From: Planctomycetota bacterium | Lineage (GTDB): Bacteria; Planctomycetota; UBA8108; SXIK01 | Direction: 5' to 3' | Assembly (NCBI GenBank): GCA_965223265.1 | Contig: OZ244999.1 | Span: 6,496,001-6,560,000 of the forward strand | Length of the DNA stretch: 64,000 nucleotides | Part shown: one piece after another, positions 22 to 13,318 of the stretch | How positions within the stretch are numbered: position 1 is the first letter of the stretch | Layout of the letters: each line of letters starts with the position of its first letter | Translations under genes and position numbers: made by a program | Notes under the pieces: model-generated | Database searches by the model: none | Told to the model about the DNA's origin: nothing | The model's input: only the letters and a program-made list of their open reading frames with translations

Positions 22-1962
22 CTACAGCCCCAAGCGACGATTGTATACGAGCCATTCGATGAGAACGAAAACGAGCGCCACCGCAGCGAACCAACGCCAA
101 TGCTCGGTGCGCCCCTCTCCTTCGGCTTGATTCACCGCCACTTCGAAGTCGCCAAAGTCGATCTTTTCCGCGGGCTCAAGGTTGGACTCTCGTGCGTTCA
201 GCAACCCCACAGGCAGACGTTCGATCACTTGATCCGCCGCGATCACCTCGTACACACCGACCTCGCTCGGCGACGCGACCACCAAGTTGCCGTTACTCTC
301 TCGCGTGGGCACCAACCGTTCACCGCTTGGCGAGCGAAACACGACGCCCTCTTGCACTTCGTCTTCGCGATCAGCTGGCCTGTACACCAACGCTTCGCCG
401 CTACGGAAGCGACTGCGCGTGACCCCGCGGTTCTGTTGTTCGAGCCATTCCAGAGCATTCGCGAAAAAGATCGGGAACGAGTAGTGTTGATCGAATGGCC
501 AGTTCGTGTCCATGACGTCGAAACCGATCACCACCGCGGTAGCAGGTCGTTGTCCGGGTCGCCGAAACAAATAGCTACCGATAATCGGCCCCTGATCAGA
601 CTCGACGAGGGGGAGGAATCCATCCCGCTCCTCCAGGACGAACGAAGACTCGATGATCAAGTTCGTGTAGAGCAAGAATCGGTTCACAGGGTGCGACCGA
701 TCCCAATCGATGATGAGAGGCAATTCGACGCGGCTCGAATCCAAAGTAGAATCTTCGCCGCGCTCGGTCTCAGCGTCGGGCGCACCTGGTAGGCAGCCGA
801 CATAGAGCGATGGCAGCTGCGGCACGCCCGGGGGAGCCTTCTGGTTGAACAGGACAACGTCGGCACCAAGTTTGCGAGAAAGGTTCTCAGGTGGGACGTC
901 GCGGGTCTCCTGTAGGTACTCGCCGAAGGCGACACGTCGCATGACGAGGAATGGACTGCCACGAAAAAGCGACTCGATCCAAAAATTGGGTTCACTCACG
1001 AGCAAGACGTTGATGCGCCGTTGTTCCTGCACGCGTACCCAAGCTCGGTCATCCAAATCGAGCGCGTCATCAACTTGGACCTCGACACGCGCAACGCCGT
1101 CCAGTCGATCACCGCAATCGAAGGTGACAGAGTGACTCTTGCCTGCGGCGAGCTCAACCTCCTTGACGTCGACGAGGTCGTCATCAAAAAAGAACTCCAC
1201 TTCGCCACTCCACGCCTTGCTACCGAAGTTCTTCAGTACGGCCAAAACTTCGATCCGCCGATCCACTTCGTAAGTTTGGCGCGCGTCACACTCGATCACG
1301 GCGACGTTAGCCACCGGTGCTGCGGCACTGAAGAACTTCACACGCTGTCGTTTCACCTCTTCAGGCAAACGACTCAAATCTCCGTAGCAACTGTCGCCGA
1401 GGACGTGCACCTCGGCGTCGACGAGAGTGGAGGCCAGCGCGGTACCGTCGACGAGGGAAGGCGTCAATCGCGTCGGCGACGCGACCGCAGCAACCGAATC
1501 GATCGTCGCTGAGAGTGCCGTGCGATCTCGAGTGAGCGCCGCACGCGTCTGCGTTCGCGCCCCGAACGACAGGATCGCGGCGCGGTCCTCCGGTTTCATC
1601 GAAGCGATTAGTTCGCGAGCGTGTTCTTTGATGCGATCGATCCGAGCCTGTCCACCTTCACGCGCCGCCATGCTAGCTGACTGATCGATGAGGAGAACCA
1701 CGTTACGTCCGGGCTCGAGTTTGCCGATCGTATGTGGTCTCCACAGCGCGAGGATCAACCCTACCAGAATGATCAGCTGCAGAAGCAAAAGGAGGCTTCG
1801 CCGCAGCCGTTGAAACGGCGCGTTAACATGCAGATCCTCGACAGATCGACGCCAAAGAACAGTACTCGACACTACGCGCTCCTGTCGACGCAGCTTCAAG
1901 AAGTAGAGCGCAATCAGGGCCGGAATGAATGCTAGCAGCGAATACACTGGGAGCCAGCTCAT
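22..1962 (-). CDS. BatA-domain / von Willebrand factor A (vWA) membrane protein
   Basis: N-terminal BatA-like segment (PALIALYFLKLRR..VSSTVLWRR..LLLLLQL), MIDAS motif DQSASM and C-terminal TM helix ending in EWLVYNRR. ATGA overlap with the DUF58 gene. Confidence 0.85.
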   Translation of the reverse strand: MSWLPVYSLLAFIPALIALYFLKLRRQERVVSSTVLWRRSVEDLHVNAPFQRLRRSLLLLLQLIILVGLILALWRPHTIGKLEPGRNVVLLIDQSASMAAREGGQARIDRIKEHARELIASMKPEDRAAILSFGARTQTRAALTRDRTALSATIDSVAAVASPTRLTPSLVDGTALASTLVDAEVHVLGDSCYGDLSRLPEEVKRQRVKFFSAAAPVANVAVIECDARQTYEVDRRIEVLAVLKNFGSKAWSGEVEFFFDDDLVDVKEVELAAGKSHSVTFDCGDRLDGVARVEVQVDDALDLDDRAWVRVQEQRRINVLLVSEPNFWIESLFRGSPFLVMRRVAFGEYLQETRDVPPENLSRKLGADVVLFNQKAPPGVPQLPSLYVGCLPGAPDAETERGEDSTLDSSRVELPLIIDWDRSHPVNRFLLYTNLIIESSFVLEERDGFLPLVESDQGPIIGSYLFRRPGQRPATAVVIGFDVMDTNWPFDQHYSFPIFFANALEWLEQQNRGVTRSRFRSGEALVYRPADREDEVQEGVVFRSPSGERLVPTRESNGNLVVASPSEVGVYEVIAADQVIERLPVGLLNARESNLEPAEKIDFGDFEVAVNQAEGEGRTEHWRWFAAVALVFVLIEWLVYNRRLGL

Positions 1963-2858
1963 TTCACCAACCCCCGACGGCGTAGGTACTCAAGAACCAG
2001 GCGATCGAACGCCCGCGCAGTGCTCGTGGGTACGTAGTGCATGCCGCGCGCCGCGCAGTAGTTCCGAATCTCGGCGCAGAAGAGGTCGAGCGTTTTTTTA
2101 TAGCGTTTGAGCAGCGCCCCGGACACGGAGATTTCAGCTTCGCTCCCGTCCTCGACATCGACGAGGCGCAGGTCACCGGTAACCTCCGGCTCAATCTCCT
2201 GCGGCGCGAGGACGTGAAACACGAAGATCTCCGTCGATCGACCGCCGGCGAGAAGATAGCGCAGGCACGACTCAAACCCTTCCTTGTCGAGAAAGTCGGT
2301 GATAAAGATCACGAGCCCACCGCCTCGCTGGCTCAGCGAAAACTCCTTACACGAACGGGCTAAATCAGTTCCCGCCTCATCGGCCGAGTCCACCCCGCCA
2401 AGCACGTCGAACAGTCGCATGGTCTGCCGACGCCCTCGAGCCGGGCCGAACAGCGGAGTCATGCGCTCAGCGAAACCGGCGAGGCTGACGCGGTCTTGGT
2501 TCACCAGGCCGATGTATGCTAGAGCCGCAGCCAGTTTCTTGGCGTACTCTAGTTTGTTGGGGTCACCGAAGTCCATCGAAGCGCTACGGTCGATCAAGAT
2601 CCGCACGCTCAGATCCTCCTCTTCGAGAAAGATCTTCAGAAACAACCGATCCAAACGTCCGTACACGTTCCAGTCGAGATATCTGAGGTCATCCCCGGGC
2701 ACGTAAGCGCGGAAGTCCGCGAACTCGTTCGAGTACCCACGTCGCTTCGACAACCGATCGCCCTTCAGCTGACCAGCAATCATTCGCCGCGACACGAGCT
2801 CAAGCTGCTCGATCTTGGCGATGAATTCGTCGTCCAACAATCGCTGTTTGGTTGCCAC
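1959..2858 (-). CDS. DUF58 domain protein (MoxR partner, vWA-like)
   Basis: Motif EFADFRAYVPGDDLRYLDWNVYGR..LKIFLEEE followed by DRSASM. GTG at 2858 chosen as start, which is uncertain. Confidence 0.9.
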   Translation of the reverse strand: MATKQRLLDDEFIAKIEQLELVSRRMIAGQLKGDRLSKRRGYSNEFADFRAYVPGDDLRYLDWNVYGRLDRLFLKIFLEEEDLSVRILIDRSASMDFGDPNKLEYAKKLAAALAYIGLVNQDRVSLAGFAERMTPLFGPARGRRQTMRLFDVLGGVDSADEAGTDLARSCKEFSLSQRGGGLVIFITDFLDKEGFESCLRYLLAGGRSTEIFVFHVLAPQEIEPEVTGDLRLVDVEDGSEAEISVSGALLKRYKKTLDLFCAEIRNYCAARGMHYVPTSTARAFDRLVLEYLRRRGLVK

Positions 2859-2918
2859 GTTAGCTGACCTATTTTCCCAGGAATTCCTCAGCAACCGAAT
2901 CGAGACTCGACGCCATGG

Positions 2919-3926
2919 TTAGCTTTCCGACACCTCAGTCGTCTTCTCCAGAATCTCATCGACGATCCGGTCAGTCTCGACGCCTTCAGCTTCGCCCTCA
3001 AAGTTGAGAAGAATGCGATGCCGCAGCACCGGATGCGTCGACCTCTTCAAGTCGTCAAAACTCACGTTGTAACGACCATCAAGAAGGGCGCGGATCTTTG
3101 CGGCGAGGAGAAGCGACTGTGCGCCGCGCGGGCTGGAGCCGTAGCGGACATACTGATTCGTCATTGGTACGGCGTAGTCCTTTCCGGGATGGGTGGAAAG
3201 GATCACCCGAATCGCATAATCCTTGACGTGCGGCGCAACCACTACTTGACGCACGAGATCTTTCCACTTTTCGATTTCGTCGCCGCCCATGACAACGGAG
3301 CGCTGATCGTCGAATGCATCCACCGTGCGCTCGAGCACGGTGCCAAGCTCCTCGCGCGTAGGGTAATCTACCAAAACCTTGAACATGAAGCGGTCGAGCT
3401 GAGCCTCCGGGAGTGGATACGTCCCGTCCATCTCGAGAGGGTTCTGCGTCGCCAAGACGATGAACGGCTTCTTCATGGCGTAGATCGTTCCAGCCACAGT
3501 CACACTTCGCTCCTGCATCGCCTCGAGCAGCGCAGATTGCGTCTTCGGTGTGGCGCGGTTGACTTCATCGGCGAGCACAATGTTTCCGAAAATCGGTCCC
3601 TTTTGAAACTCGAAGTGCTTTCGGCCGGTGTCGTCCTCGATGACGATGTTCGTACCAACAATGTCAGCTGGCATGAGATCCGGCGTGAACTGAATACGTC
3701 GAAACTCCAAATCGAGTACTTCGCTCAGCGTGCGCACCAAGAGTGTCTTGCCCAGTCCAGGGACGCCCTCAAGCAGGCAATTGCCGCCGGCAAACAGGGC
3801 GATGAGCACCTGATCGATGATGTGCTGCTGACCGACGATCATCTTGCTGATCTCGTCGCGCACGCGGCCGAATTGCTGGCGAAACTCGGCGGCCTGCTCT
3901 TCCATGGCGGACGCGGCTATACTCAT
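2919..3926 (-). CDS. moxR: MoxR-family AAA+ ATPase
   Basis: Walker A GVPGLGKT, RIQFTPDLMPAD, Walker B LADEVNRATPKTQSALLEAMQE, ATQNPLE.GTYPLPEAQLDRF. Confidence 0.95.
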   Translation of the reverse strand: MSIAASAMEEQAAEFRQQFGRVRDEISKMIVGQQHIIDQVLIALFAGGNCLLEGVPGLGKTLLVRTLSEVLDLEFRRIQFTPDLMPADIVGTNIVIEDDTGRKHFEFQKGPIFGNIVLADEVNRATPKTQSALLEAMQERSVTVAGTIYAMKKPFIVLATQNPLEMDGTYPLPEAQLDRFMFKVLVDYPTREELGTVLERTVDAFDDQRSVVMGGDEIEKWKDLVRQVVVAPHVKDYAIRVILSTHPGKDYAVPMTNQYVRYGSSPRGAQSLLLAAKIRALLDGRYNVSFDDLKRSTHPVLRHRILLNFEGEAEGVETDRIVDEILEKTTEVSES

Positions 3927-4117: not shown

Positions 4118-7100
4118 CTAGCTCTCGTCCTCCTCCTTCTTCTCCCGAAGCGCTCTCTTCTTCGCTTCGAGAAGGCGTGATGTATAGGATCCCGCCGCCT
4201 CTGAGCTCGGCTCTGCCTCGGCTGCGGGCGCGGACTCTTTCGCCGGCTTGTCTGCACCGTGGCGAGCGCGCTCCGGCGTCACCTCGGTAAAACTCTCGAG
4301 CGCCGATGCGGCGTCGACCGGACGTGCGTCATCCTCGGCACGGGCATGCACCGCTCGGACACCCGCTGCGGCACGGCCAGAACCCACACGACGCGAAGCC
4401 GCTTCTGACGGTGCCGCGGAAGTCTCCACCGTTGACGGACTGTCAACCGAACCACCTCCGTAACGAGCGTCGGTCGATTCGCGCAGTTTCGCCTTGCGCT
4501 CGAGAAGCGTCGCCAACCGTCCTTCGGTAGGAGCTAGTTCGCGTTTTCTCACACCGATCAGCAAAGCGGCGTAGTTCACGGCCTTCAAGAATGCCTGACG
4601 GTAGTCGATGGCAACGCGGCGCACGAAGACGTCGATAAAAAACATCGCCAATGCCGCCAGAACCAGAGACTGCCAGACGTCACTGACGTCGTACGATGCC
4701 TCAAAGTCGCGGCGAAAGAACTGGGCGTCGGCAGGATCATCGAAGTAGACACCTCCTCCTGCGTCAGCGATCTGTCGCAAGAGTTCATGGTTGGTCTTCA
4801 AGCGTCGATACTCCCCTGAGTATGGCACACTCACGCCAGTGACGAACGAGCGTTGATTTCCGTCACGCTCGTAAACCGCGCTCAGCGTATAGGTACCCTT
4901 CTTCGGTGTCGCGAAGTTGGCGCGATAAGATCCAGGCGCAGTTTGCGGCATGTCGACTCGCTGATCTTTGAAGTCCGGTCCGACGACACTCACTTGCAGG
5001 TCGAGGTCTTTGATGAACCGGCCATCAAGACTGAGCGCGTCGAGCTGAATCGTCGCGGTGTCGCCTTCAATCGAGCGCGTGACGCGGAAACGCTCCTCGC
5101 CGCGCGTGCGCATGACCCACCGCAGGCACTGCGCCCAAAAGGGCTGAAACCCACTCCATTCGGCCCAGTTGCCTCCCCACCGCCGGCCGGCGTCGGACGT
5201 GAACGCGACCGCCTTGCCGACGCCGTAGGCCCAAGTCGCGAGCACGGGATCCTCCGTAGGATCGTCCTCGCTCGCGGGGTGAGTCAAAGGCACCGACGCG
5301 AGAGGCTTTCTGGTCGTCAAGACGTACCCGTTAAGTGGCGGCATGCCGCGCTGTCCAACACCCTGGAGAATCGGGTGGGAGCTGCGCAGATTTGGCGTGA
5401 ACGGCTCTTCTGAGATCAGAGACTTCGTCACCGTCGTTGTCTCACGGATAAAAATCTCCGGCAAATCGTCCGGTGACTGTAAGAAGTAGTAGTTTCCACC
5501 TCCGATCGCCGCCATGTTCTTCATCGCCGCCGGGATCGTGCCGTGTGCCCCATAGCATATGGTCGACACTGTGATCCCCGCGTTGACCATGTTGGAGAGG
5601 AGCGAGTTCGGGGGAGGCGTCGGATCGCCGTCGGACAAGACGATTAGGTGCTTGATCGATGCTGGCGTTGACTGTAGCCCGGTGAACGCCATCCGCATGA
5701 TGTTCTGAAACGACATCATGTCGCCGGGACTAAAATTCTGCAGAAGCCCGAGCATCTGCTGTCGCTTGCTGACAGGCGACATCGGGAAGAGCCACTGGTC
5801 CCCCGCATTGCCGTAGTAAAGAACACCGCAATAGTCACGCGGCGATAGAATCTTGATACCTTGCTGAAGGACCTGAACCGCCCAGTAGTTGCCGCGGGCC
5901 AGCTCACACGAGTGGACGACGAACGCGATGGCGCCGTTGGGCATGACCTTCTTGTTCTTGATGTCCATTTCAACGGGTAACAACCGTTCGATCGGCGTCG
6001 CCCGATAGCCGCCAGCGCCGAAACTGCTCTCACCGCCGATCATGACGAAGCCGACCCCGATCGTCTTGACGAGAGACTCGAACATCTTCATCGTGTCGAC
6101 GCTCAAACGGTCGGCTGGAATATCAGAGAGCACAATGGCGTCGTAACCGAAGTATCGCTCGATCGATGTCGGGAGCGTCTCTGGTGTGGCGATGTCCACG
6201 GAGATCTCTTCAGCTCGCAACGCATCCAGCAAAGCTTGGTCGCCTTCCTCGTCGTCGGCACAGAAGAGCACGGCAGGCGTGCCCTGCACACGCGTGAACC
6301 CGTACGCAACGTTGTTCTCGAAGATGTAGTCGTCCGTAGATCGCAGCGGCTCAACGCGCGCCTCGTAGTAGTTTTGGCCTACGCTTCCGATGCGACGACC
6401 GGAAAAATCGAAGACGTTCTTACCTGCCTTGAGAGGCTGGTTGGCACCCGAGACGAGCTGCCCATTTTCGTAAAGCTGCAGCTGCACCTCAGTCTCTATG
6501 GTCGAATCGACGACGACGCGGATGTCGAAAGGCTCACCAACATTCTGTTCAGGGTCGACGATAAGCTTTTCGACCGAGATTTCCGCGGGATACTCATAGG
6601 TGACCGGCACAACGTCGATGGTCACACCTTGAGCACGAGCGTTGTGGACCTCCTCCACCACCGACCCACTATTCTGATTGCCGTCCGAAAGCAGCACGAT
6701 GCGCTTGGCGTGGCGCTCCGGAAACGCTGCGGTGGCCAATCGGATAGCGGCGCCGATATTGGTAGCCTCTGGCTCGATCAGGGTCGAGAAACTCGTCAAA
6801 TCGAGCTCGAGCGGCCTTGGAGTCAGCTCGATGCCGGGTACGCGGCCAAACGCGAGGACGCCGACGCGATCGTCGGGTCGGCGCCCGTCGTTCGCCTTGC
6901 CATTGATGAACCGGCGCTCAGCGTCCCGCTGTTCAGCAGGCACACTCTCCGACAAGTCGGCGACGAAGATCACGGCGAGGTCGTCGTTCGTGCGAAAAAA
7001 CCGCGCTTCTGCGAGCGCCAGGACCAGTAGAATCACGACCACACAGCGCAAACCGAGGACCACCGCTCGTCGTACGGCAGGCAAGCCCGCGAGACTCCGC

Positions 7101-7183
7101 CGCGAAAAGAGAAAAATCAGGGGCACGAGCAGCAGCAGGAGCAGAAACCACGGCGAACCAAACGCCAACGAGAACTCGGTCAT
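4118..7183 (-). CDS. Large membrane protein with two vWA-like domains and a glutamine-amidotransferase-like domain
   Basis: N-terminal TM helices, DLSES MIDAS, LLSDGNQN, GFVMIGGESSFGAGGY..PIERLLPV, second vWA-like domain with LSDG, WAYGVGKAVAFTSD, and C-terminal TM followed by a low-complexity tail. Confidence 0.85.
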   Translation of the reverse strand: MTEFSLAFGSPWFLLLLLLVPLIFLFSRRSLAGLPAVRRAVVLGLRCVVVILLVLALAEARFFRTNDDLAVIFVADLSESVPAEQRDAERRFINGKANDGRRPDDRVGVLAFGRVPGIELTPRPLELDLTSFSTLIEPEATNIGAAIRLATAAFPERHAKRIVLLSDGNQNSGSVVEEVHNARAQGVTIDVVPVTYEYPAEISVEKLIVDPEQNVGEPFDIRVVVDSTIETEVQLQLYENGQLVSGANQPLKAGKNVFDFSGRRIGSVGQNYYEARVEPLRSTDDYIFENNVAYGFTRVQGTPAVLFCADDEEGDQALLDALRAEEISVDIATPETLPTSIERYFGYDAIVLSDIPADRLSVDTMKMFESLVKTIGVGFVMIGGESSFGAGGYRATPIERLLPVEMDIKNKKVMPNGAIAFVVHSCELARGNYWAVQVLQQGIKILSPRDYCGVLYYGNAGDQWLFPMSPVSKRQQMLGLLQNFSPGDMMSFQNIMRMAFTGLQSTPASIKHLIVLSDGDPTPPPNSLLSNMVNAGITVSTICYGAHGTIPAAMKNMAAIGGGNYYFLQSPDDLPEIFIRETTTVTKSLISEEPFTPNLRSSHPILQGVGQRGMPPLNGYVLTTRKPLASVPLTHPASEDDPTEDPVLATWAYGVGKAVAFTSDAGRRWGGNWAEWSGFQPFWAQCLRWVMRTRGEERFRVTRSIEGDTATIQLDALSLDGRFIKDLDLQVSVVGPDFKDQRVDMPQTAPGSYRANFATPKKGTYTLSAVYERDGNQRSFVTGVSVPYSGEYRRLKTNHELLRQIADAGGGVYFDDPADAQFFRRDFEASYDVSDVWQSLVLAALAMFFIDVFVRRVAIDYRQAFLKAVNYAALLIGVRKRELAPTEGRLATLLERKAKLRESTDARYGGGSVDSPSTVETSAAPSEAASRRVGSGRAAAGVRAVHARAEDDARPVDAASALESFTEVTPERARHGADKPAKESAPAAEAEPSSEAAGSYTSRLLEAKKRALREKKEEDES

Positions 7184-8277
7184 CGCCTCAACCCTCTCCC
7201 ACTGAGAATGTCGCTCGCCTGCCTCGTCTCGGCAGGTTGAGGCGTCCCCTGCGACTCCGGACCGCTTGCCACACCATCCGCTGCAACGACGTCCGATGCG
7301 GGCGGCTCGCGCTGCACCGCCGCCGTCTCCCAGTCGAAAATCTGCACGCGATGGTTGCCGTAATCAGCGACATAAACTCGTCCGTCAGGCCCGACTTCGA
7401 TATCCCACGGAGTCGAGAGCCGCCCCGGCGCACTGCCAGGTCCTCCCCAAAAACCAAGGAACTCTTCGTCGGCGGAGAACTTCTGAATGCGATGATTCCC
7501 CCACTCGCAGACCAAAATCGCGCCCTTGTGGTCGACAGCAACCGCGATCGGATAGCGAAACTCGCCAGGCCCCTGGCCAAGTCGTCCCAGGGAGCTAACG
7601 TAGCGACCGTCAAGACTGAACCGCTGAACGCGGTGATTCGCGCAGTCGGCGACGAGGAGATACTCAGTGCCCTCCCGCACCTCGATCGCCATGCCCTGTG
7701 GTCGCTGGAACTGACCGGGCGCCCCTCCCATCTTCCCCCACGATTTGATGAACTCGCCGCTCGATGTGAACTTGAGGATGCGGTCGTTGAGACCACCGAA
7801 GTCGCCAGCATAAACCATCCCCTGTGCATCGACGACGACGTCGCGCCCGAACGTCAGCTGACCCGGTCCGAGCCCGTTTGAACCCCAGCGCGCGAGGATC
7901 TCGCGGCCTTGAGGATCATAGCGGAGGATGCGGCTGTAGTGGCTGTCGTTGACGAGAAGGTTTCCATTCGCCTCAACGGTCATGCCGACAGGTTGGCCAT
8001 ACTTGAACTCCGGCAGCGTCCAGACGTTCAAGACACTACCGTCGTCGGCCAGGTGCTGGATGCGCCCGCTGCGGTCGACCGCGTAGAAGCTTCCATCTTT
8101 GGCAACCGCAATAGCGCGTGGTTTGATGAATCGTCCCGGGCGCTGACCGCGCGCGCCGATGGTCGTCGGCGCCTCGATGGCACCCTCAACACTCGAAGCA
8201 TTCGCCATCCACCAAGCGACACCGCTGGCGATGAACGTGACGACGACGATGCCTCGCACCAAATTCAACACGAGCAA
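7180..8277 (-). CDS. NHL-repeat beta-propeller protein with N-terminal membrane anchor
   Basis: Repeated G..PGQF..P.G.AV...G...V.D..NHR.Q.F units and a hydrophobic N-terminus. Confidence 0.9.
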   Translation of the reverse strand: MLVLNLVRGIVVVTFIASGVAWWMANASSVEGAIEAPTTIGARGQRPGRFIKPRAIAVAKDGSFYAVDRSGRIQHLADDGSVLNVWTLPEFKYGQPVGMTVEANGNLLVNDSHYSRILRYDPQGREILARWGSNGLGPGQLTFGRDVVVDAQGMVYAGDFGGLNDRILKFTSSGEFIKSWGKMGGAPGQFQRPQGMAIEVREGTEYLLVADCANHRVQRFSLDGRYVSSLGRLGQGPGEFRYPIAVAVDHKGAILVCEWGNHRIQKFSADEEFLGFWGGPGSAPGRLSTPWDIEVGPDGRVYVADYGNHRVQIFDWETAAVQREPPASDVVAADGVASGPESQGTPQPAETRQASDILSGRGLRR

Positions 8278-8408: not shown

Positions 8409-10331
8409 TCACTCGTCTTCCTGATCACCGTTCAGCAATCGGTCGAGGTATCTCTGGACATGCGCCTTCCGCTCGATCGGGAGCGGTTCCGTCTCGACTT
8501 CCTCGGCGAGTTCCTGAATTGCCTGGCTGACATTGACCTTGCCTTCGAAGGTCGCTTCACCACGCATGAGTGGTCCATCGACATCGAACTTGCCAACAAT
8601 CATGCCGCGAGGATTGAGCTGCTTCGCCTTGATCTTCTCGCGCTTCATTGTGGTGTCATGCGGCGCCACGCCAGGCCCGGCGCCGTTCGCACGGCCCGGC
8701 CCACTGCCGGACTTGGGTCCGGTTCTCTGTGACTGTCCCAATGACAACTTCAATCCGTTTGCTGCGCTCCGACCGGAGCCCTGGGCCTGGCCGCTTCACG
8801 TGCCGCCAGGCTTGCCTTTGCCGCCCTGTCATGTGCCGCCGGGTTTCTGACCCTGCGCCAGTTTCTTACCGCAGTTCGCACAGCGATGCAGCTGTCCCAT
8901 CTGCGCCTTGGTCTGCTTGATGAGCTCCATCGCCTGTCGCAGCGCCGCCAGGTCCTGGGAAAGTTGGGCGAGGGAGTTCAAGTCCTGATCCATCCCCTGC
9001 ATGTTCGAAAGCATCTTGGCCATGTCAGCGCTGCTCATGCTCAGCGACTCCATCCCGCTGAGGCTGTTGGCAAACGCCCCCGACTGTCGCGACAGCCGTG
9101 CGAGCTCCTTCTGCAGCTGCTTGATCCGCTGCTTCTCCTTTTCGGTGAGCTGCTTCGGATCTTTCTTCGCGAGCTGCTGCAACTCCTTGGTCAGTTTGTC
9201 GAGCTCTGTCTTTGCCTTCGCGAAGTCGCCCTGTTTGAGCGCGGCTTGCAGCGCCTTCGTAGCGACCAGCGATTTGAGCGACAAACCCTCGAGCTTCTTG
9301 CGCATCTTGTCGAACTGGTCGAAACGGTTGGCGGCGAGACCCTGCTTGAGAATCTCTTCGCGGCGCGCGATTTCGAGGAGCCCCTTCTTCTGCGCGTCGC
9401 TCCTCTTGGCCGCGCCGTCGCCCTTTTGCTCCTGGGAACCTGGCTGCTGCCGGTTTGGCTTTTTTGCCTCAGGGTCATACTTGCTCAGTCGCTTCAACAG
9501 CTCCTGTGTTTCCTTCGAGGTGTTCTCGGCGGCCTTTGCCTCGAGGCGATCGAGCTCTTTTTTGAGTTTGTCTTTTTCCTCGTCGATGGCCTTCGCCATC
9601 TCCTCTTCGTGCGAAGCGCCTTCGGCCGTCGAAGAGAGTCCAAAAGGATCAAGAATCGGCAGGAATGTCAGCGCCACGGCAGCGAAGACGGGTACTACGA
9701 TCCACAAAGCACGGCGTCTTGGGGTGAGAGGGAACACCTGGCGGACGTCAGCGTCCAACAACGATCGCCCGGCGTCAGCGACGACGAGGCCGGCCCACTC
9801 GCTCTGGCCGCGGCGAGTCGAGTCTGCCGCAGACCGTACGTGCGCCGCGGCGACTTCGGGATGCTCAGCGAAGTACGCACTGGCGACGCGTTCCTTCATC
9901 GCCAGTCGGCGATCCGTCTCGACGGCAGTGTCGAACAGTCGAGGACGCCGAAGGAAAAGGGCTCGCACCATGGCGGCCACGAGACTCAGACCAGCGATTG
10001 CCGATACGATCTCGAGGCGGAAAACGCCCGGATAGAGGAGTCGGTCGACGACGATCAAAAGCGCGCTCACTGACGCGGCAAGAATCGCATAGGTGACGAG
10101 ATGGTGCCCAAAGCAAGCAAGCGTCAACCGACGGCGCCCCCGGCGAAGGAATTGCTCGAGGTGGGCTGCCGCATCGCGGCCCTCGGCAGCGCCAGGGTCT
10201 ACCGAGTGCCCCACTTTCGAGCCCCCAACCGAATCCCCCACTACCGAATCTCCCGCGGCCGATCGACCGTCAGCCTCAGGCAGCGGAGAATCGCGCATGG
10301 GAGAGGAATCGTCTCGTCTCGACATAGCCAC
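8409..10331 (-). CDS. Membrane-anchored coiled-coil protein, proposed single 640-aa ORF with two in-frame UGA codons (candidate selenoprotein, residues 501 and 512)
   Basis: ORFs 8829..10331 and 8409..8753 are in the same frame and separated only by TGA at 8829-8831 and 8796-8798, reading HRCANCGKKLAQGQKPGGT*QGGKGKPGGT*SGQAQG. The protein has three TM segments, a long K/E/Q/L coiled coil and a Gly-rich tail ending LPIERKAHVQRYLDRL. Confidence 0.75.
8766..8779 (-). promoter_or_regulatory. Candidate bacterial SECIS hairpin
   Basis: The mRNA reads GCUCC-GGUC-GGAGC, with the loop starting after a 21-nt spacer from the second UGA. The GGUC loop resembles the E. coli fdhF SECIS apical loop. Confidence 0.55.
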
Positions 10332-10560: not shown

Positions 10561-11910
10561 TCACTGCGTCGAGGCCGCCCCCTCCTCCGGTGTGATAACG
10601 AACGCCGAGTAGTTCTCTGGGTCGAGCAATTGCTCGACACGATCGGCGACGACCTCCTGCCGGATCCCGCCCAACAGATCCACGACCTCAAAAAGATCAA
10701 AATCGTGGAACTCATAGAAAGTGAAGTGGTTAGCGATGTACTCGAGGGAGTTGAACGCGCTGATAAAGTGACCCGTGAAGCGACGTTTCTCGCGCTCGAA
10801 CTCGTCCTCTTCAACGCCACGCTCCCGACAAGCGACGATCGATTGAACGACCGCCTCCTCGAGACGCTCGGGAGCAGGCGTGTCCCCGCCGATCATCGAA
10901 TAACCGACGCCAGCACCAAGGTTGTAGGAAGACCCGAAATCATCGGTGATCAGCTCCCTCTCGTAGAGGTCGCGGTAGAGGTCGCTGCCGCGTCCGAACA
11001 ACAGTTCGAGGGCCAGCTCCGAGGCGAGCTCGTGCTCGACGAACGCCTTGCCGCTAACGGGGACGTCCAGCTCCTTGAAGCCGAGGAGAAGCTTCGGCAC
11101 GGCCACGGCCATCGATCGCCGCTGGTGGTGCCGCGCCACGCCCTGGCTCTCCGGTGGGAAACGCCGCTCCACAACAGCTCGCCGCCGTCCAGAAGTCGAA
11201 CGTTCGCCGGAATCGGAGTGCTCCGCCACAAATCGAAAGAGCTCGCCTGGATCCACGTCGCCGACGACGAACAGGATCATATTCTTCGGATGGTAAAACG
11301 CATCGTGACACCGGTGGAGAAGCTCCGGTGTGATCTCGGCAATGCTCTCCGGCGTGCCGGCGATGTCGATGCGCAGCGGGTGCCGTACAAACAACTCCTC
11401 TAACACCCCCATGTAGCTCACCCACCCAGGGCTATCATCATAGCCCTTGATCTCTTGCTCGATGATGCCCCGCTCCTTCTCGACCTTGTCTGGGGCGAAT
11501 ACAGGATGCTCGACGAAGTCGATCAGAAGCTTGAGGTTGTCGTAGAACTCGTGCGTTGACGCGAATAGATACGTCGTCGTCGTGAAGGACGTCGACGCAT
11601 TACTGTACGCGCCGTTGCGTGCGAAGAGATCTGAGACATTGCCGGCTTCGGTCTCAAAGAGCACGTGCTCGAGATAATGCGCGATGCCATCCGGAACTTG
11701 CACGCGTTCCCCGCCTTCAACGACGAAGTCGTTGTCGACCGAGCCATAGTACGTCGAGTAGCTCGCGTAGCGTTTCCTAAAGCCCGGCTTGGGACACACC
11801 ATAACGCGCAACCCAGACGGCAGCACCTCGCAGAAGACTTCTTCCTTAAGAGTCGTACTCCAGCGTCGCTGACGCTCGCGTGGGCTCGTCCTCGAGTCTT
11901 CCTTCGACAT
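10561..11910 (-). CDS. M16 (insulinase-family) zinc peptidase, catalytic subunit, YmfH-like
   Basis: VPDGIAHYLEH (inverted HxxEH motif), SNASTSF.TT.Y, EKERGIIEQEI, YHPKNM. ATG at 11910 chosen as start. Confidence 0.9.
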   Translation of the reverse strand: MSKEDSRTSPRERQRRWSTTLKEEVFCEVLPSGLRVMVCPKPGFRKRYASYSTYYGSVDNDFVVEGGERVQVPDGIAHYLEHVLFETEAGNVSDLFARNGAYSNASTSFTTTTYLFASTHEFYDNLKLLIDFVEHPVFAPDKVEKERGIIEQEIKGYDDSPGWVSYMGVLEELFVRHPLRIDIAGTPESIAEITPELLHRCHDAFYHPKNMILFVVGDVDPGELFRFVAEHSDSGERSTSGRRRAVVERRFPPESQGVARHHQRRSMAVAVPKLLLGFKELDVPVSGKAFVEHELASELALELLFGRGSDLYRDLYERELITDDFGSSYNLGAGVGYSMIGGDTPAPERLEEAVVQSIVACRERGVEEDEFEREKRRFTGHFISAFNSLEYIANHFTFYEFHDFDLFEVVDLLGGIRQEVVADRVEQLLDPENYSAFVITPEEGAASTQ

Positions 11911-12019
11911 GAACCGCTTGTCCTGTTCTTCTAGCACTTGTGGAAATCTACACGGCATACTCAACGTTCATACCTAACGCGTCGACCCCACGGGCCTCGC
12001 GAGCGGCGCAAGGCAGAAC

Positions 12020-13318
12020 CTAGCCGCGCGTCAAGAGATAGCTTGTGTCCAAATCGAGCTGCTGCGACACTTCAACGATGTGGTCCCGGGTCACCCCGCG
12101 AACGCGCTCGCGGAACCGCTCAAGGTCGAGCGGACGCCCATGCAGGCCCCAGACAAAATCGGTCTGTGCTAGGGCGCTGGGGTTATCCTCCAGCATTTCG
12201 TTCTGATTGAGGATCGTCGCCACAGTCGATGCAATCTCGTCATCGGAAATCTCACCTCTCTGCATCGCCTCCACTTGCTGGCGAATGATGACCGTGGCTT
12301 CATCGACGTTCTCAGGAGCTATGCCGCTCGAGATGGTCAGGAATCGTTTTGTTCGTTCGACGCTCGAACGCACGGAGTAACAGAGGTTCGCCTTTTCGCG
12401 GACATTCTGGAACAGTTTCGAGTGGCTATAGCCGCCGAGAATGCCGTTCATGACGAGGAGCGTCTCGTAGAGGTCGTCCGTGTAAGAAACCTGGTGGCGG
12501 TAGCCCATGACGAGCTTTGCTTGCTGCACGTCCATGGTCTCAACGGCAGACTTGGGCTCGTCGACAGGCCCGAGCGACGCCGGTCGTTCGTTGACAGCAA
12601 GCTCGAGCGGACGGTCCAGGAACTCACAAAACTCACGCGTGATGAGATCCTTCGTGGGTTCAATCTCAAGGTCACCCACGACGTACACGGAAATCGGGTA
12701 GTGGCTCAACCAATCCTTATGGAATTGCCGCAGCGACTGAGCAGTGATCTGTTTCAAGTCGTCGATGCGGCCGTGCTCGTAAAGACAAAACGGATCGCCC
12801 GCAAACATCGTCTCGAGCATACGCTGTTCGGCATACGCCGATTTTGAGTCAAGTAGCCCACTGATGTGGCGATGCAGATTGGCCTTTTCATGCTCGACGC
12901 AGGCCTTGGGAAAGTCGCCATCGACGAGAAACGGATCGCTCACAGACTGACGAACGAACTCGACAGCTTGACGCAGCACCGAAGCGGACTCCGGCAGGAA
13001 GAGGTCGTTGACGCACTCCATCCGTGCCTGCACGAGGTGCCAATCGCCGATTTTGTAGACCGACGATCCCAAGGACGTGCCATACAGCCCTTCGAGAAAT
13101 CTATTCATGCTCTGCAAATCGGGGTGCGCACGAGTTCCGCGCCGCAGCACCATCGGTAAGAGAGCCATTGACGTGACCGTCTCAGAGGTCAGATTGCCGA
13201 GAAAAGTGACCTGCATCACGACGGTTTTTATCTTTCGACTTGAGCACAACGCCAAGTGGAACCCAGGCGCCGGGTCGAAGTGTACGAAGGTGGATTCGGA
13301 CGTGGTCGTGTCTTTCAC
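12020..13318 (-). CDS. M16 peptidase, non-catalytic subunit, YmfF-like
   Basis: M16 C-terminal motif NGILGGYSHSKLFQNVREKANLCYS, no HxxEH, adjacent to the catalytic partner. Confidence 0.85.
   Translation of the reverse strand: MKDTTTSESTFVHFDPAPGFHLALCSSRKIKTVVMQVTFLGNLTSETVTSMALLPMVLRRGTRAHPDLQSMNRFLEGLYGTSLGSSVYKIGDWHLVQARMECVNDLFLPESASVLRQAVEFVRQSVSDPFLVDGDFPKACVEHEKANLHRHISGLLDSKSAYAEQRMLETMFAGDPFCLYEHGRIDDLKQITAQSLRQFHKDWLSHYPISVYVVGDLEIEPTKDLITREFCEFLDRPLELAVNERPASLGPVDEPKSAVETMDVQQAKLVMGYRHQVSYTDDLYETLLVMNGILGGYSHSKLFQNVREKANLCYSVRSSVERTKRFLTISSGIAPENVDEATVIIRQQVEAMQRGEISDDEIASTVATILNQNEMLEDNPSALAQTDFVWGLHGRPLDLERFRERVRGVTRDHIVEVSQQLDLDTSYLLTRG

Follow-up and report, generated by a model that had tools for sequence, protein, structure and literature searches.

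Locus and reading frame

The window analysed here is a 64,000-nucleotide stretch of the genome of a Planctomycetota bacterium (contig OZ244999.1, positions 6,496,001 to 6,560,000); coordinates are counted from its first nucleotide, and positions outside it carry the prefix C1 or a locus number. On the minus strand, positions 10331..8409 form a single frame of 640 codons followed by a terminal TGA (8411-8409), interrupted only by TGA 8831-8829 (UGA1) and TGA 8798-8796 (UGA2). Judged from sequence comparison, this is very probably a real selenocysteine (Sec)-containing gene, encoding a selenoprotein of 640 residues.

Both TGAs are preceded by codons for KPGGT (AAA CCC GGC GGC ACA TGA for UGA1 and AAG CCT GGC GGC ACG TGA for UGA2), and three third positions, all synonymous, distinguish the two units. 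Translated locally, the stretch reads H-R-C-A-N-C-G-K-K-L-A-Q-G-Q-K-P-G-G-T-(TGA)-Q-G-G-K-G-K-P-G-G-T-(TGA)-S-G-Q. This layout (shared frame, two interrupting TGAs, KPGGT contexts and three synonymous differences) had been described in a first-pass annotation of the window and was confirmed by re-translation. Open reading frame (ORF) calling with translation table 11 splits the frame into 8829..10331 (500 aa) and 8409..8753 (114 aa, from a TTG at 8753).

The first-pass annotation had also proposed a check of reads over the TGA region. Positions 8700-8900 were identical, with zero differences, in the assembled contigs of four public sequencing runs, which represent two samples of one study and are possibly the source of the genome itself. 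Assembly error was rejected, as these contigs reproduce both TGAs. The features of the gene, its neighbours and the related loci of the same genome are collected in Table 1.

Table 1. Coordinates of the family gene, its sequence elements, its neighbours and other loci of the genome
Feature	Position	Strand	Basis or remark
Whole gene	8409..10331	-	Start GTG 10331 or ATG 10325; homologues contiguous in other genomes
Three hydrophobic segments, putative transmembrane helices (residues 76-101, 106-128, 206-233)	9633..10106	-	Kyte-Doolittle scan
Charged Lys/Glu/Leu/Gln-rich region, presumed helical/coiled coil (residues about 236-480)	8892..9626	-	Composition
CxxC, Cys484-Ala-Asn-Cys487, upstream of both proposed Sec codons	8871..8882	-	Invariant in alignment A1
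UGA1, proposed Sec501 (codon 501), after KPGGT	8829..8831	-	Aligned column TGA or Cys in relatives
Second hairpin, GCCUGGC.GC-ACGUGAA-GC.GCCAGGC (GCUGGC-type stem)	8785..8811	-	Minimum free energy and centroid folds
UGA2, proposed Sec512 (codon 512), after KPGGT	8796..8798	-	Column invariant Cys/Sec in alignment A1
SECIS-like hairpin for UGA2, GCUCC-GGUC-GGAGC	8766..8779	-	Folds, covariation, enrichment (21/26 versus 0.56% background)
Conserved C-terminal domain (residues about 562-640), LNPRGxxVGxF..GEA...EVExEPLPxExxxxVxxY	8412..8648	-	In-frame conservation
NHL-repeat gene, downstream	7180..8277	-	Pfam; adjoins the family gene in 13/13 class-level loci
VWA/GATase1_like membrane protein gene	4118..7183	-	Pfam, synteny
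MoxR AAA+ ATPase (AAA_3)	2919-3926	-	Pfam
DUF58	1959-2894	-	Pfam
BatA/VWA	22-1962	-	Pfam
Two peptidase M16 genes, upstream	10561-11964, 12020-13318	-	Pfam; M16 upstream in 6/13 class-level loci
FdhA-like gene, TGA in U-H-x-P context	L067:1903-1905 (C1:8400141)	+	149 bits, below the TIGR01553 cut-off
FG-GAP/ASPIC TGAs	L074:2560-2562 (C1:5755064); L075:595-597 (C1:3157218)	+; -	Outside the window
CMD (carboxymuconolactone decarboxylase)-family ORF, TGA in C-H-Y-U (CxxU)	L076:274-276 (C1:8525443)	+	GGUC-loop hairpin at +29

Exchange of Cys and TGA among homologues

Forty related genomes were searched in six frames with the read-through protein as query. A homologue was present in 13 of them, at 26-42% identity, and the same frame, TGAs and C-terminal domain were kept across genera. 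Two motif TGAs were found in ten of these genomes, one in two (G039, where site 1 is Cys, and G025, which is without the first unit) and none in one: G005 has an uninterrupted 600-codon frame with Cys at both sites (CKSCGKAGQ-C-NSQGK-C-GSC). Listed by locus, L030 carries Cys at both sites in a single uninterrupted ORF, and Cys occupies site 1 in L035, L054, L055 and L059. All-Cys forms were found at L045, L048, L057 and L058, with CxxC...CxxC in L045 and L057 and six CxxCxGxG repeats in the same linker of L048.

Alignment A1 shows only Cys/Sec at Cys484, Cys487 and site 512, and almost only Cys/Sec at site 501. The stretch between the two TGAs stays in frame and is 7-11 codons long, the TGAs of the family lying 8-12 codons apart, and in all aligned relatives the C-terminal domain (LDPRGxxVGxF...GEA...EVExExLPxEYxxxVRxY) is kept in the same frame after them. 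Relatives are contiguous and have an aligned TGA or Cys, as the first-pass annotation had asked of homologues. Since the same columns hold TGA or Cys in relatives of many genera, the in-frame TGA pattern is, on this comparison, not a product of chance.

A phylum-wide search of 400 genomes was carried out with the last 213 residues only as query, and 53 genomes gave matches. By the count of the search tool, these had two TGAs (18 matches), three (2), one (8) or none (24); the remaining match was a weak hit with one TAG. Motif variants were read in detail at 26 phylum loci, where CxxC..U..U was the commonest. The others were CxxU..U..U, with three TGAs of which the third lies inside the CxxC (G274 and G395), CxxC..C..U, U..U..CxxC (G102), and all-Cys variants, among them CxxC..CxxC and one with six consecutive CxxCxGxG units (G135), while variants without any Cys carry (GQ)n in the linker instead. 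At homologous sites Cys is exchanged for TGA and TGA for Cys, and three positions are affected, which is the classic selenoprotein signature.

Sec machinery and genetic code

The genome consists of one contig of 9.18 Mb. Profile matches to SelA (548 bits), SelB (324 bits) and SelD (309 bits) were found, together with a tRNA-Sec (70.3 bits, anticodon tca); the parts that the first-pass annotation had listed for a search, selA, selB, selD and one tRNA with a UCA anticodon, are accordingly all present. Aragorn called 61 tRNAs, and the tca anticodon occurs in tRNA-Sec only. TGA ends 6/12 neighbouring genes as an ordinary stop, and a changed genetic code was rejected on these two grounds. Two further observations concern these gene sets: the SelD match (L017, C1:3460739-3461653) belongs to a 790-aa open frame, compared with a model of 311 positions, which suggests a domain fusion, and at C1:2022659-2022732 Aragorn reports a tRNA-like gene with a two-base anticodon call (gt), its identity undetermined.

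Co-occurrence with SelA was assessed in 55 family-bearing genomes, leaving out five weak TGA-free hits and the TAG hit. SelA was found in all 36 TGA-bearing genomes (35 above the cut-off, and one as a 263.5-bit fragment at a contig end) and in 12 of the 19 TGA-free ones; the seven genomes without it include four that are 96-99% complete. No TGA form without SelA was found among the 55 genomes.

SECIS-like hairpin downstream of UGA2

UGA2 is followed by a hairpin that resembles a bacterial Sec insertion sequence (SECIS), with its GGUC loop at 8774-8771, i.e. +25..+28 from the U of UGA2. The SECIS of E. coli fdhF has a GGUC loop with G23/U24. Hairpins were scored when they had a contiguous stem of at least 5 bp and a GGU loop starting at +19..+28. 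By this criterion a GGU-loop hairpin follows 21 of 26 last UGAs, a set that is not independent, since the window and three near-identical genomes from a single genus are part of it. Such hairpins follow 0/106 Cys codons of the motif region and, as background, 112/20,028 other codons of the same genes (0.56%).

To measure covariation, 24 of the 26 sequences (two near-duplicates were excluded) were aligned with MAFFT, with the UGA as anchor. Across the seven pairs of the helix, 79.6% of alignment cells can pair; shifting the 3' partner by 1-3 columns lowers this to 38-49%. All seven pairs have changed on both sides in a compensatory manner. The covariation score was 0.516, against 0.11-0.16, and was reached by none of 500 shuffles. 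The peptide encoded over the hairpin is variable (GSGRS, GRGRG, GSGQG, GQGFV, ERGLV) while the helix is kept, which argues for selection on the RNA.

The same genome carries an FdhA-like gene whose TGA is followed at +22 by a GGUCU-loop hairpin, so the local SelB evidently uses this loop type.

Protein architecture

Conserved Arg clusters precede the first and third hydrophobic segments and follow the second (alignment A1). Under the positive-inside rule, such an arrangement points to an N-terminus inside and the C-terminal 400 residues outside, which would place the Cys/Sec centre on the periplasmic side. The C-terminal 213 residues were modelled with AlphaFold2 from a 36-row alignment (mean predicted local distance difference test score, pLDDT, 67.8): residues 434-480 form a single helix (pLDDT >90), and the last 45 residues form two helices at moderate confidence. 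A profile search of PDB sequences gave chance hits only (E>=0.03).

Gene neighbourhood

The family gene lies on the minus strand between the two M16 peptidase genes and a run of NHL, VWA/GATase1-like, MoxR, DUF58 and BatA/VWA genes. In distant loci, where only about 1.5 kb of flank was available, an NHL or VWA/GATase gene adjoins it in 9/26. Adjacency to MoxR, DUF58, BatA and VWA genes identifies the surroundings as a Bat-like cluster. The stop of the NHL gene and the start of the VWA/GATase1-like gene overlap by 4 nt (7180-7183), as do DUF58 and BatA at 1959-1962; such stop/start overlaps are typical of translationally coupled operon genes. We know of no Bat protein that contains Sec. An earlier proposal was that Bat proteins reduce oxidised proteins of the periplasm or export reducing power; deletion of bat in Leptospira biflexa gave no oxidative-stress phenotype (PMC3557215, in the part of the article available).

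Family size and annotation

The window protein matched no Pfam family and no NCBIfam family, apart from a chance YibL hit (17.7 bits against a cut-off of 110). Eight relatives compared with Pfam had no family at E<=0.01 except P0032, with a sub-threshold match to DUF4175. In the ESM Atlas, the all-Cys relative P0002 fell into clusters of 'hypothetical protein', commonest in Planctomycetota and without a Pfam family.

The A1 profile was searched against 1.84 billion cluster representatives, of which 6,964 matched at E<=1e-3 and 1,130 at E<=1e-30. The best 150 representatives comprised 96 of full length with the C-terminal domain, 42 that end just after CxxC...G-G-T (31 of them literally in GGT) and 12 otherwise truncated or atypical. 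The 42 end at the point where a gene caller would stop at UGA1; a systematic annotation error is thereby exposed, by which these proteins lose the conserved C-terminal domain. A word-indexed protein search with residues 470-640 found no match at lengths 352-1122; in itself this null is not evidence, and it fits a C-terminal part that is annotated separately or not at all. The family is large, centred on Planctomycetota and encoded in MoxR-DUF58-BatA-VWA clusters.

The 2026 prokaryotic inventory counts 119 selenoprotein families and subfamilies, and its Table 1 lists neither a membrane protein of a MoxR/VWA cluster nor a GGTU...GGTU motif (PMC13188914). The nine new families named by deep-Sep, as given in the available portion of that report, include none like the present one (PMC12013277). 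No description of the family was found in the literature covered, nor a selenoprotein linked with MoxR and von Willebrand; the planctomycete candidates of Kim et al. (2016) are given in S9 Table only, which might list the family (PMC4807772). The first-pass annotation had not recognised a known selenoprotein family here, and the lack of a Pfam or NCBIfam match and the absence from the inventory table agree with it. The family appears to be a genuine, so far unnamed, new one of the bacterial selenoprotein kind, with the tandem-UGA arrangement as its unusual feature. If confirmed, it would add a large family to the roughly 119 known in prokaryotes and would be among the few with two or three Sec.

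Other TGA-hairpin loci in the genome

A scan of the genome for TGA followed by a hairpin returned further candidates. Two paralogous FG-GAP/UnbV_ASPIC proteins of 1054 and 767 codons have one in-frame TGA each, in the context GKxxHDL-U, and in both a hairpin of 7-8 bp comes after it, its GGUC loop at +24/+25. This pair is possibly another selenoprotein family and was not seen in the inventory table (PMC13188914). The CMD-family ORF matches the known CMD-like selenoprotein type. Two repeated elements are dispersed repeats and no selenoproteins: one has at least 8 near-identical copies (C1 743394, 1761223, 4405747, 6782496, 8354571, 8371300, 9142223 and others), contains CGTGTG-GGTG-TGCGTG and translates as TRLKTVRDCD*VRVCVWVCVG, and the other (SPTESCAS.Q*VGLDRVRGAG) has 3 copies.

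Proposed decoding of the two UGAs

The aligned TGA/Cys columns, the UGA2 hairpin with its covariation and the Sec machinery support the single 640-codon gene with U501 and U512 that the first-pass annotation had inferred. From the N-terminus, the protein would have three membrane helices, a long charged region of helical character, a linker rich in Gly with Cys484-x2-Cys487...Sec501...Sec512, and the C-terminal domain. Both UGAs would be decoded by SelB with Sec-tRNA(Sec): UGA2 via the fdhF-type hairpin, whose GGUC apical loop lies 25 nt downstream, and UGA1 most likely via an earlier hairpin with UGA2 in its loop. As it moved on to UGA2, the ribosome would open this earlier hairpin, so that the two hairpins would act in succession. 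Failure of Sec insertion would release a form of 500 or 511 residues without the C-terminal domain.

The candidate SECIS for UGA1 is the second hairpin of Table 1, in which UGA2 sits in the apical loop and the loop occupies +31..+37; the GGUC loop of the window lies 58 nt from UGA1. Segments running from one UGA to 24 nt beyond the next fold better than their dinucleotide shuffles in 19/20 cases. The registers of the UGA1 hairpin vary between clades, so that no common covariation test is possible for it. A second, non-canonical hairpin for UGA1 is likely, not established, and that UGA1 is served by a hairpin of its own is put at about an even chance.

Several observations weigh against this account. 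For UGA2, 5/26 last UGAs are without a GGU-loop hairpin by the criterion used, and an Rfam search of 8650-8900 found no SECIS family, only chance-level matches to unrelated families; Rfam covers few bacterial SECIS types. For UGA1, a canonical GGU-loop hairpin follows 0/22 earlier UGAs. The mean z-score of the UGA-to-UGA segments is only -1.5, with values of -2 or below in 6/20, which is moderate support, and the UGA1 hairpin of the window itself scores only -0.43. In 13/22 cases a hairpin with a stem of 5 bp or more has the next UGA in or at its loop, against 197/880 control placements (22%), and a contiguous stem of at least 7 bp follows 9/22 earlier UGAs, against a background of 13%; the support from the first comparison is moderate and that from the second modest. 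The genomes compared are related, and the counts given for them overstate independence. The linker is without Cys or Sec in 11/96 full-length representatives and at loci L046 and L049. Finally, the Cys/Sec linker was modelled by AlphaFold2 as disordered at low confidence (pLDDT 45-66), which gives no fold support for a metal site.

A wider proposal combines these elements. Only the last UGA would have a canonical GGUC SECIS, and earlier UGAs would be read via a hairpin that presents the next UGA, or via the distal SECIS at 50-60 nt, in a phylum-wide family with 2-3 Sec placed 8-12 codons apart, the Cys2Sec2 set providing the first redox or metal chemistry for the MoxR-DUF58-BatA-VWA machinery. 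Taken as a whole, this nested-SECIS proposal is speculative and rather doubtful; if true, it would be a SECIS architecture without a described bacterial precedent. If the family is confirmed, its closely spaced UGAs and single canonical SECIS would also offer a natural test case for the reach of SelB and for tandem Sec decoding in bacteria.

Function of the Cys/Sec cluster and alternative explanations

Where the Cys/Sec cluster is present, four ligands are typical. As a working guess, held at somewhat less than even confidence, these four would form a centre for redox chemistry or metal binding, carried by a flexible, Gly-rich arm of a MoxR/VWA component anchored in the membrane. Some members lack the cluster, so the family cannot need it for its core function. 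The function of the MoxR-VWA 'Bat-like' cluster has been unknown since 1999, and a selenol/thiol centre in it would, if confirmed, supply a testable chemical hypothesis.

The main competitor on function, rated only slightly less probable, is that Cys2Sec2 is not redox-active and instead makes a structural zinc site, a zinc knuckle or a finger of the DnaJ type, by which the linker is stabilised or dimerised. All-Cys relatives with CxxC...CxxC (L045, L057) or six CxxCxGxG repeats (L048) fit this, and four is the commonest number of linker Cys among the full-length representatives (26/96). Most Sec sites are redox-active, however, according to the available part of the inventory (PMC13188914). 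In the periplasm, where the centre is predicted to lie, selenylsulfide or diselenide chemistry would be favoured, and the window protein gives no match to Pfam DnaJ_CXXCXGXG.

With regard to decoding, UGA2 alone might be a dedicated Sec codon, UGA1 being mostly a stop or passed inefficiently (by near-cognate decoding or by the GGUC SECIS at long range), with the 500-residue form as the main product and the full-length protein as a minor one. The distribution of GGU-loop hairpins, after 21/26 last and 0/22 earlier UGAs, would be expected if this were so, as would a UGA1 hairpin in the window that is no more stable than its shuffles (z -0.43). UGA1 nevertheless aligns with Cys just as UGA2 does (L030, L035), many genera keep its TGA, some members have three TGAs, and the next UGA falls in a hairpin loop more often (13/22) than in controls (22%). 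This alternative is considered improbable.

Passage of the TGAs without selenium, by a near-cognate tRNA (Trp/Cys) or by programmed readthrough that yields short and long isoforms, is less probable still. UGA followed by C is a leaky stop context in E. coli, and C does follow UGA1. Against this stand the covarying SECIS-like hairpin of UGA2, the exchange of both sites with Cys, the lack of a suppressor tRNA besides tRNA-Sec, and the presence of SelA in 36/36 TGA-bearing genomes while 7/19 TGA-free genomes are without it. Two separate genes or a decaying pseudogene, with the 500-aa ORF ending at its TGA and the 114-aa ORF translated alone or not at all, would agree with the split made by table-11 calling and with the many public proteins that end at GGT, but is scarcely credible given that the frame, both TGAs and the C-terminal domain persist at 24-42% identity across genera, that Cys forms are single uninterrupted ORFs (L030), that the putative internal start is not conserved and that the inter-TGA stretch stays in frame at 7-11 codons.

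Comparison with known systems

The neighbourhood resembles that of Bat/MoxR-VWA systems in its MoxR AAA_3, DUF58, BatA N-terminal plus VWA and VWA genes, whereas the window protein itself is not homologous to BatA-E by Pfam. A likeness to the DnaJ-type CxxCxGxG zinc finger is confined to the CxxCxGxG-like repeats in the linker of the all-Cys relative L048; the window protein, without a Pfam match to that domain, has one CxxC and then two isolated Sec. DUF4175 (PF13779) likewise comprises long, low-complexity membrane proteins of unknown function, and it neighbours MoxR/DUF58/BatA operons in Alphaproteobacteria. One relative, P0032, reaches 17.9 bits with this model, below its cut-off of 27.3, while the window protein and 7/8 relatives have no match at E<=0.01.

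In the UxxU metal-binding family NF041115, in MbdU (NF045648) and in the FmdB-family UxxU proteins (TIGR02605), two Sec are presumed to be joint ligands, as in the present proposal (PMC13188914, available part). The window protein matches none of these models, and differs in that its Sec would lie 10 residues apart on a Gly-rich linker of a large membrane protein that has no UxxU or CU.

A parallel also exists with bacterial selenoproteins that use an fdhF-type SECIS, which share the in-frame UGA, the Cys homologues, the downstream GGUC-loop hairpin at about 22-28 nt and the full Sec machinery. Unlike these, the present family would have two, and in some members three, Sec codons spaced 8-12 codons apart, with the canonical loop following the last one only.

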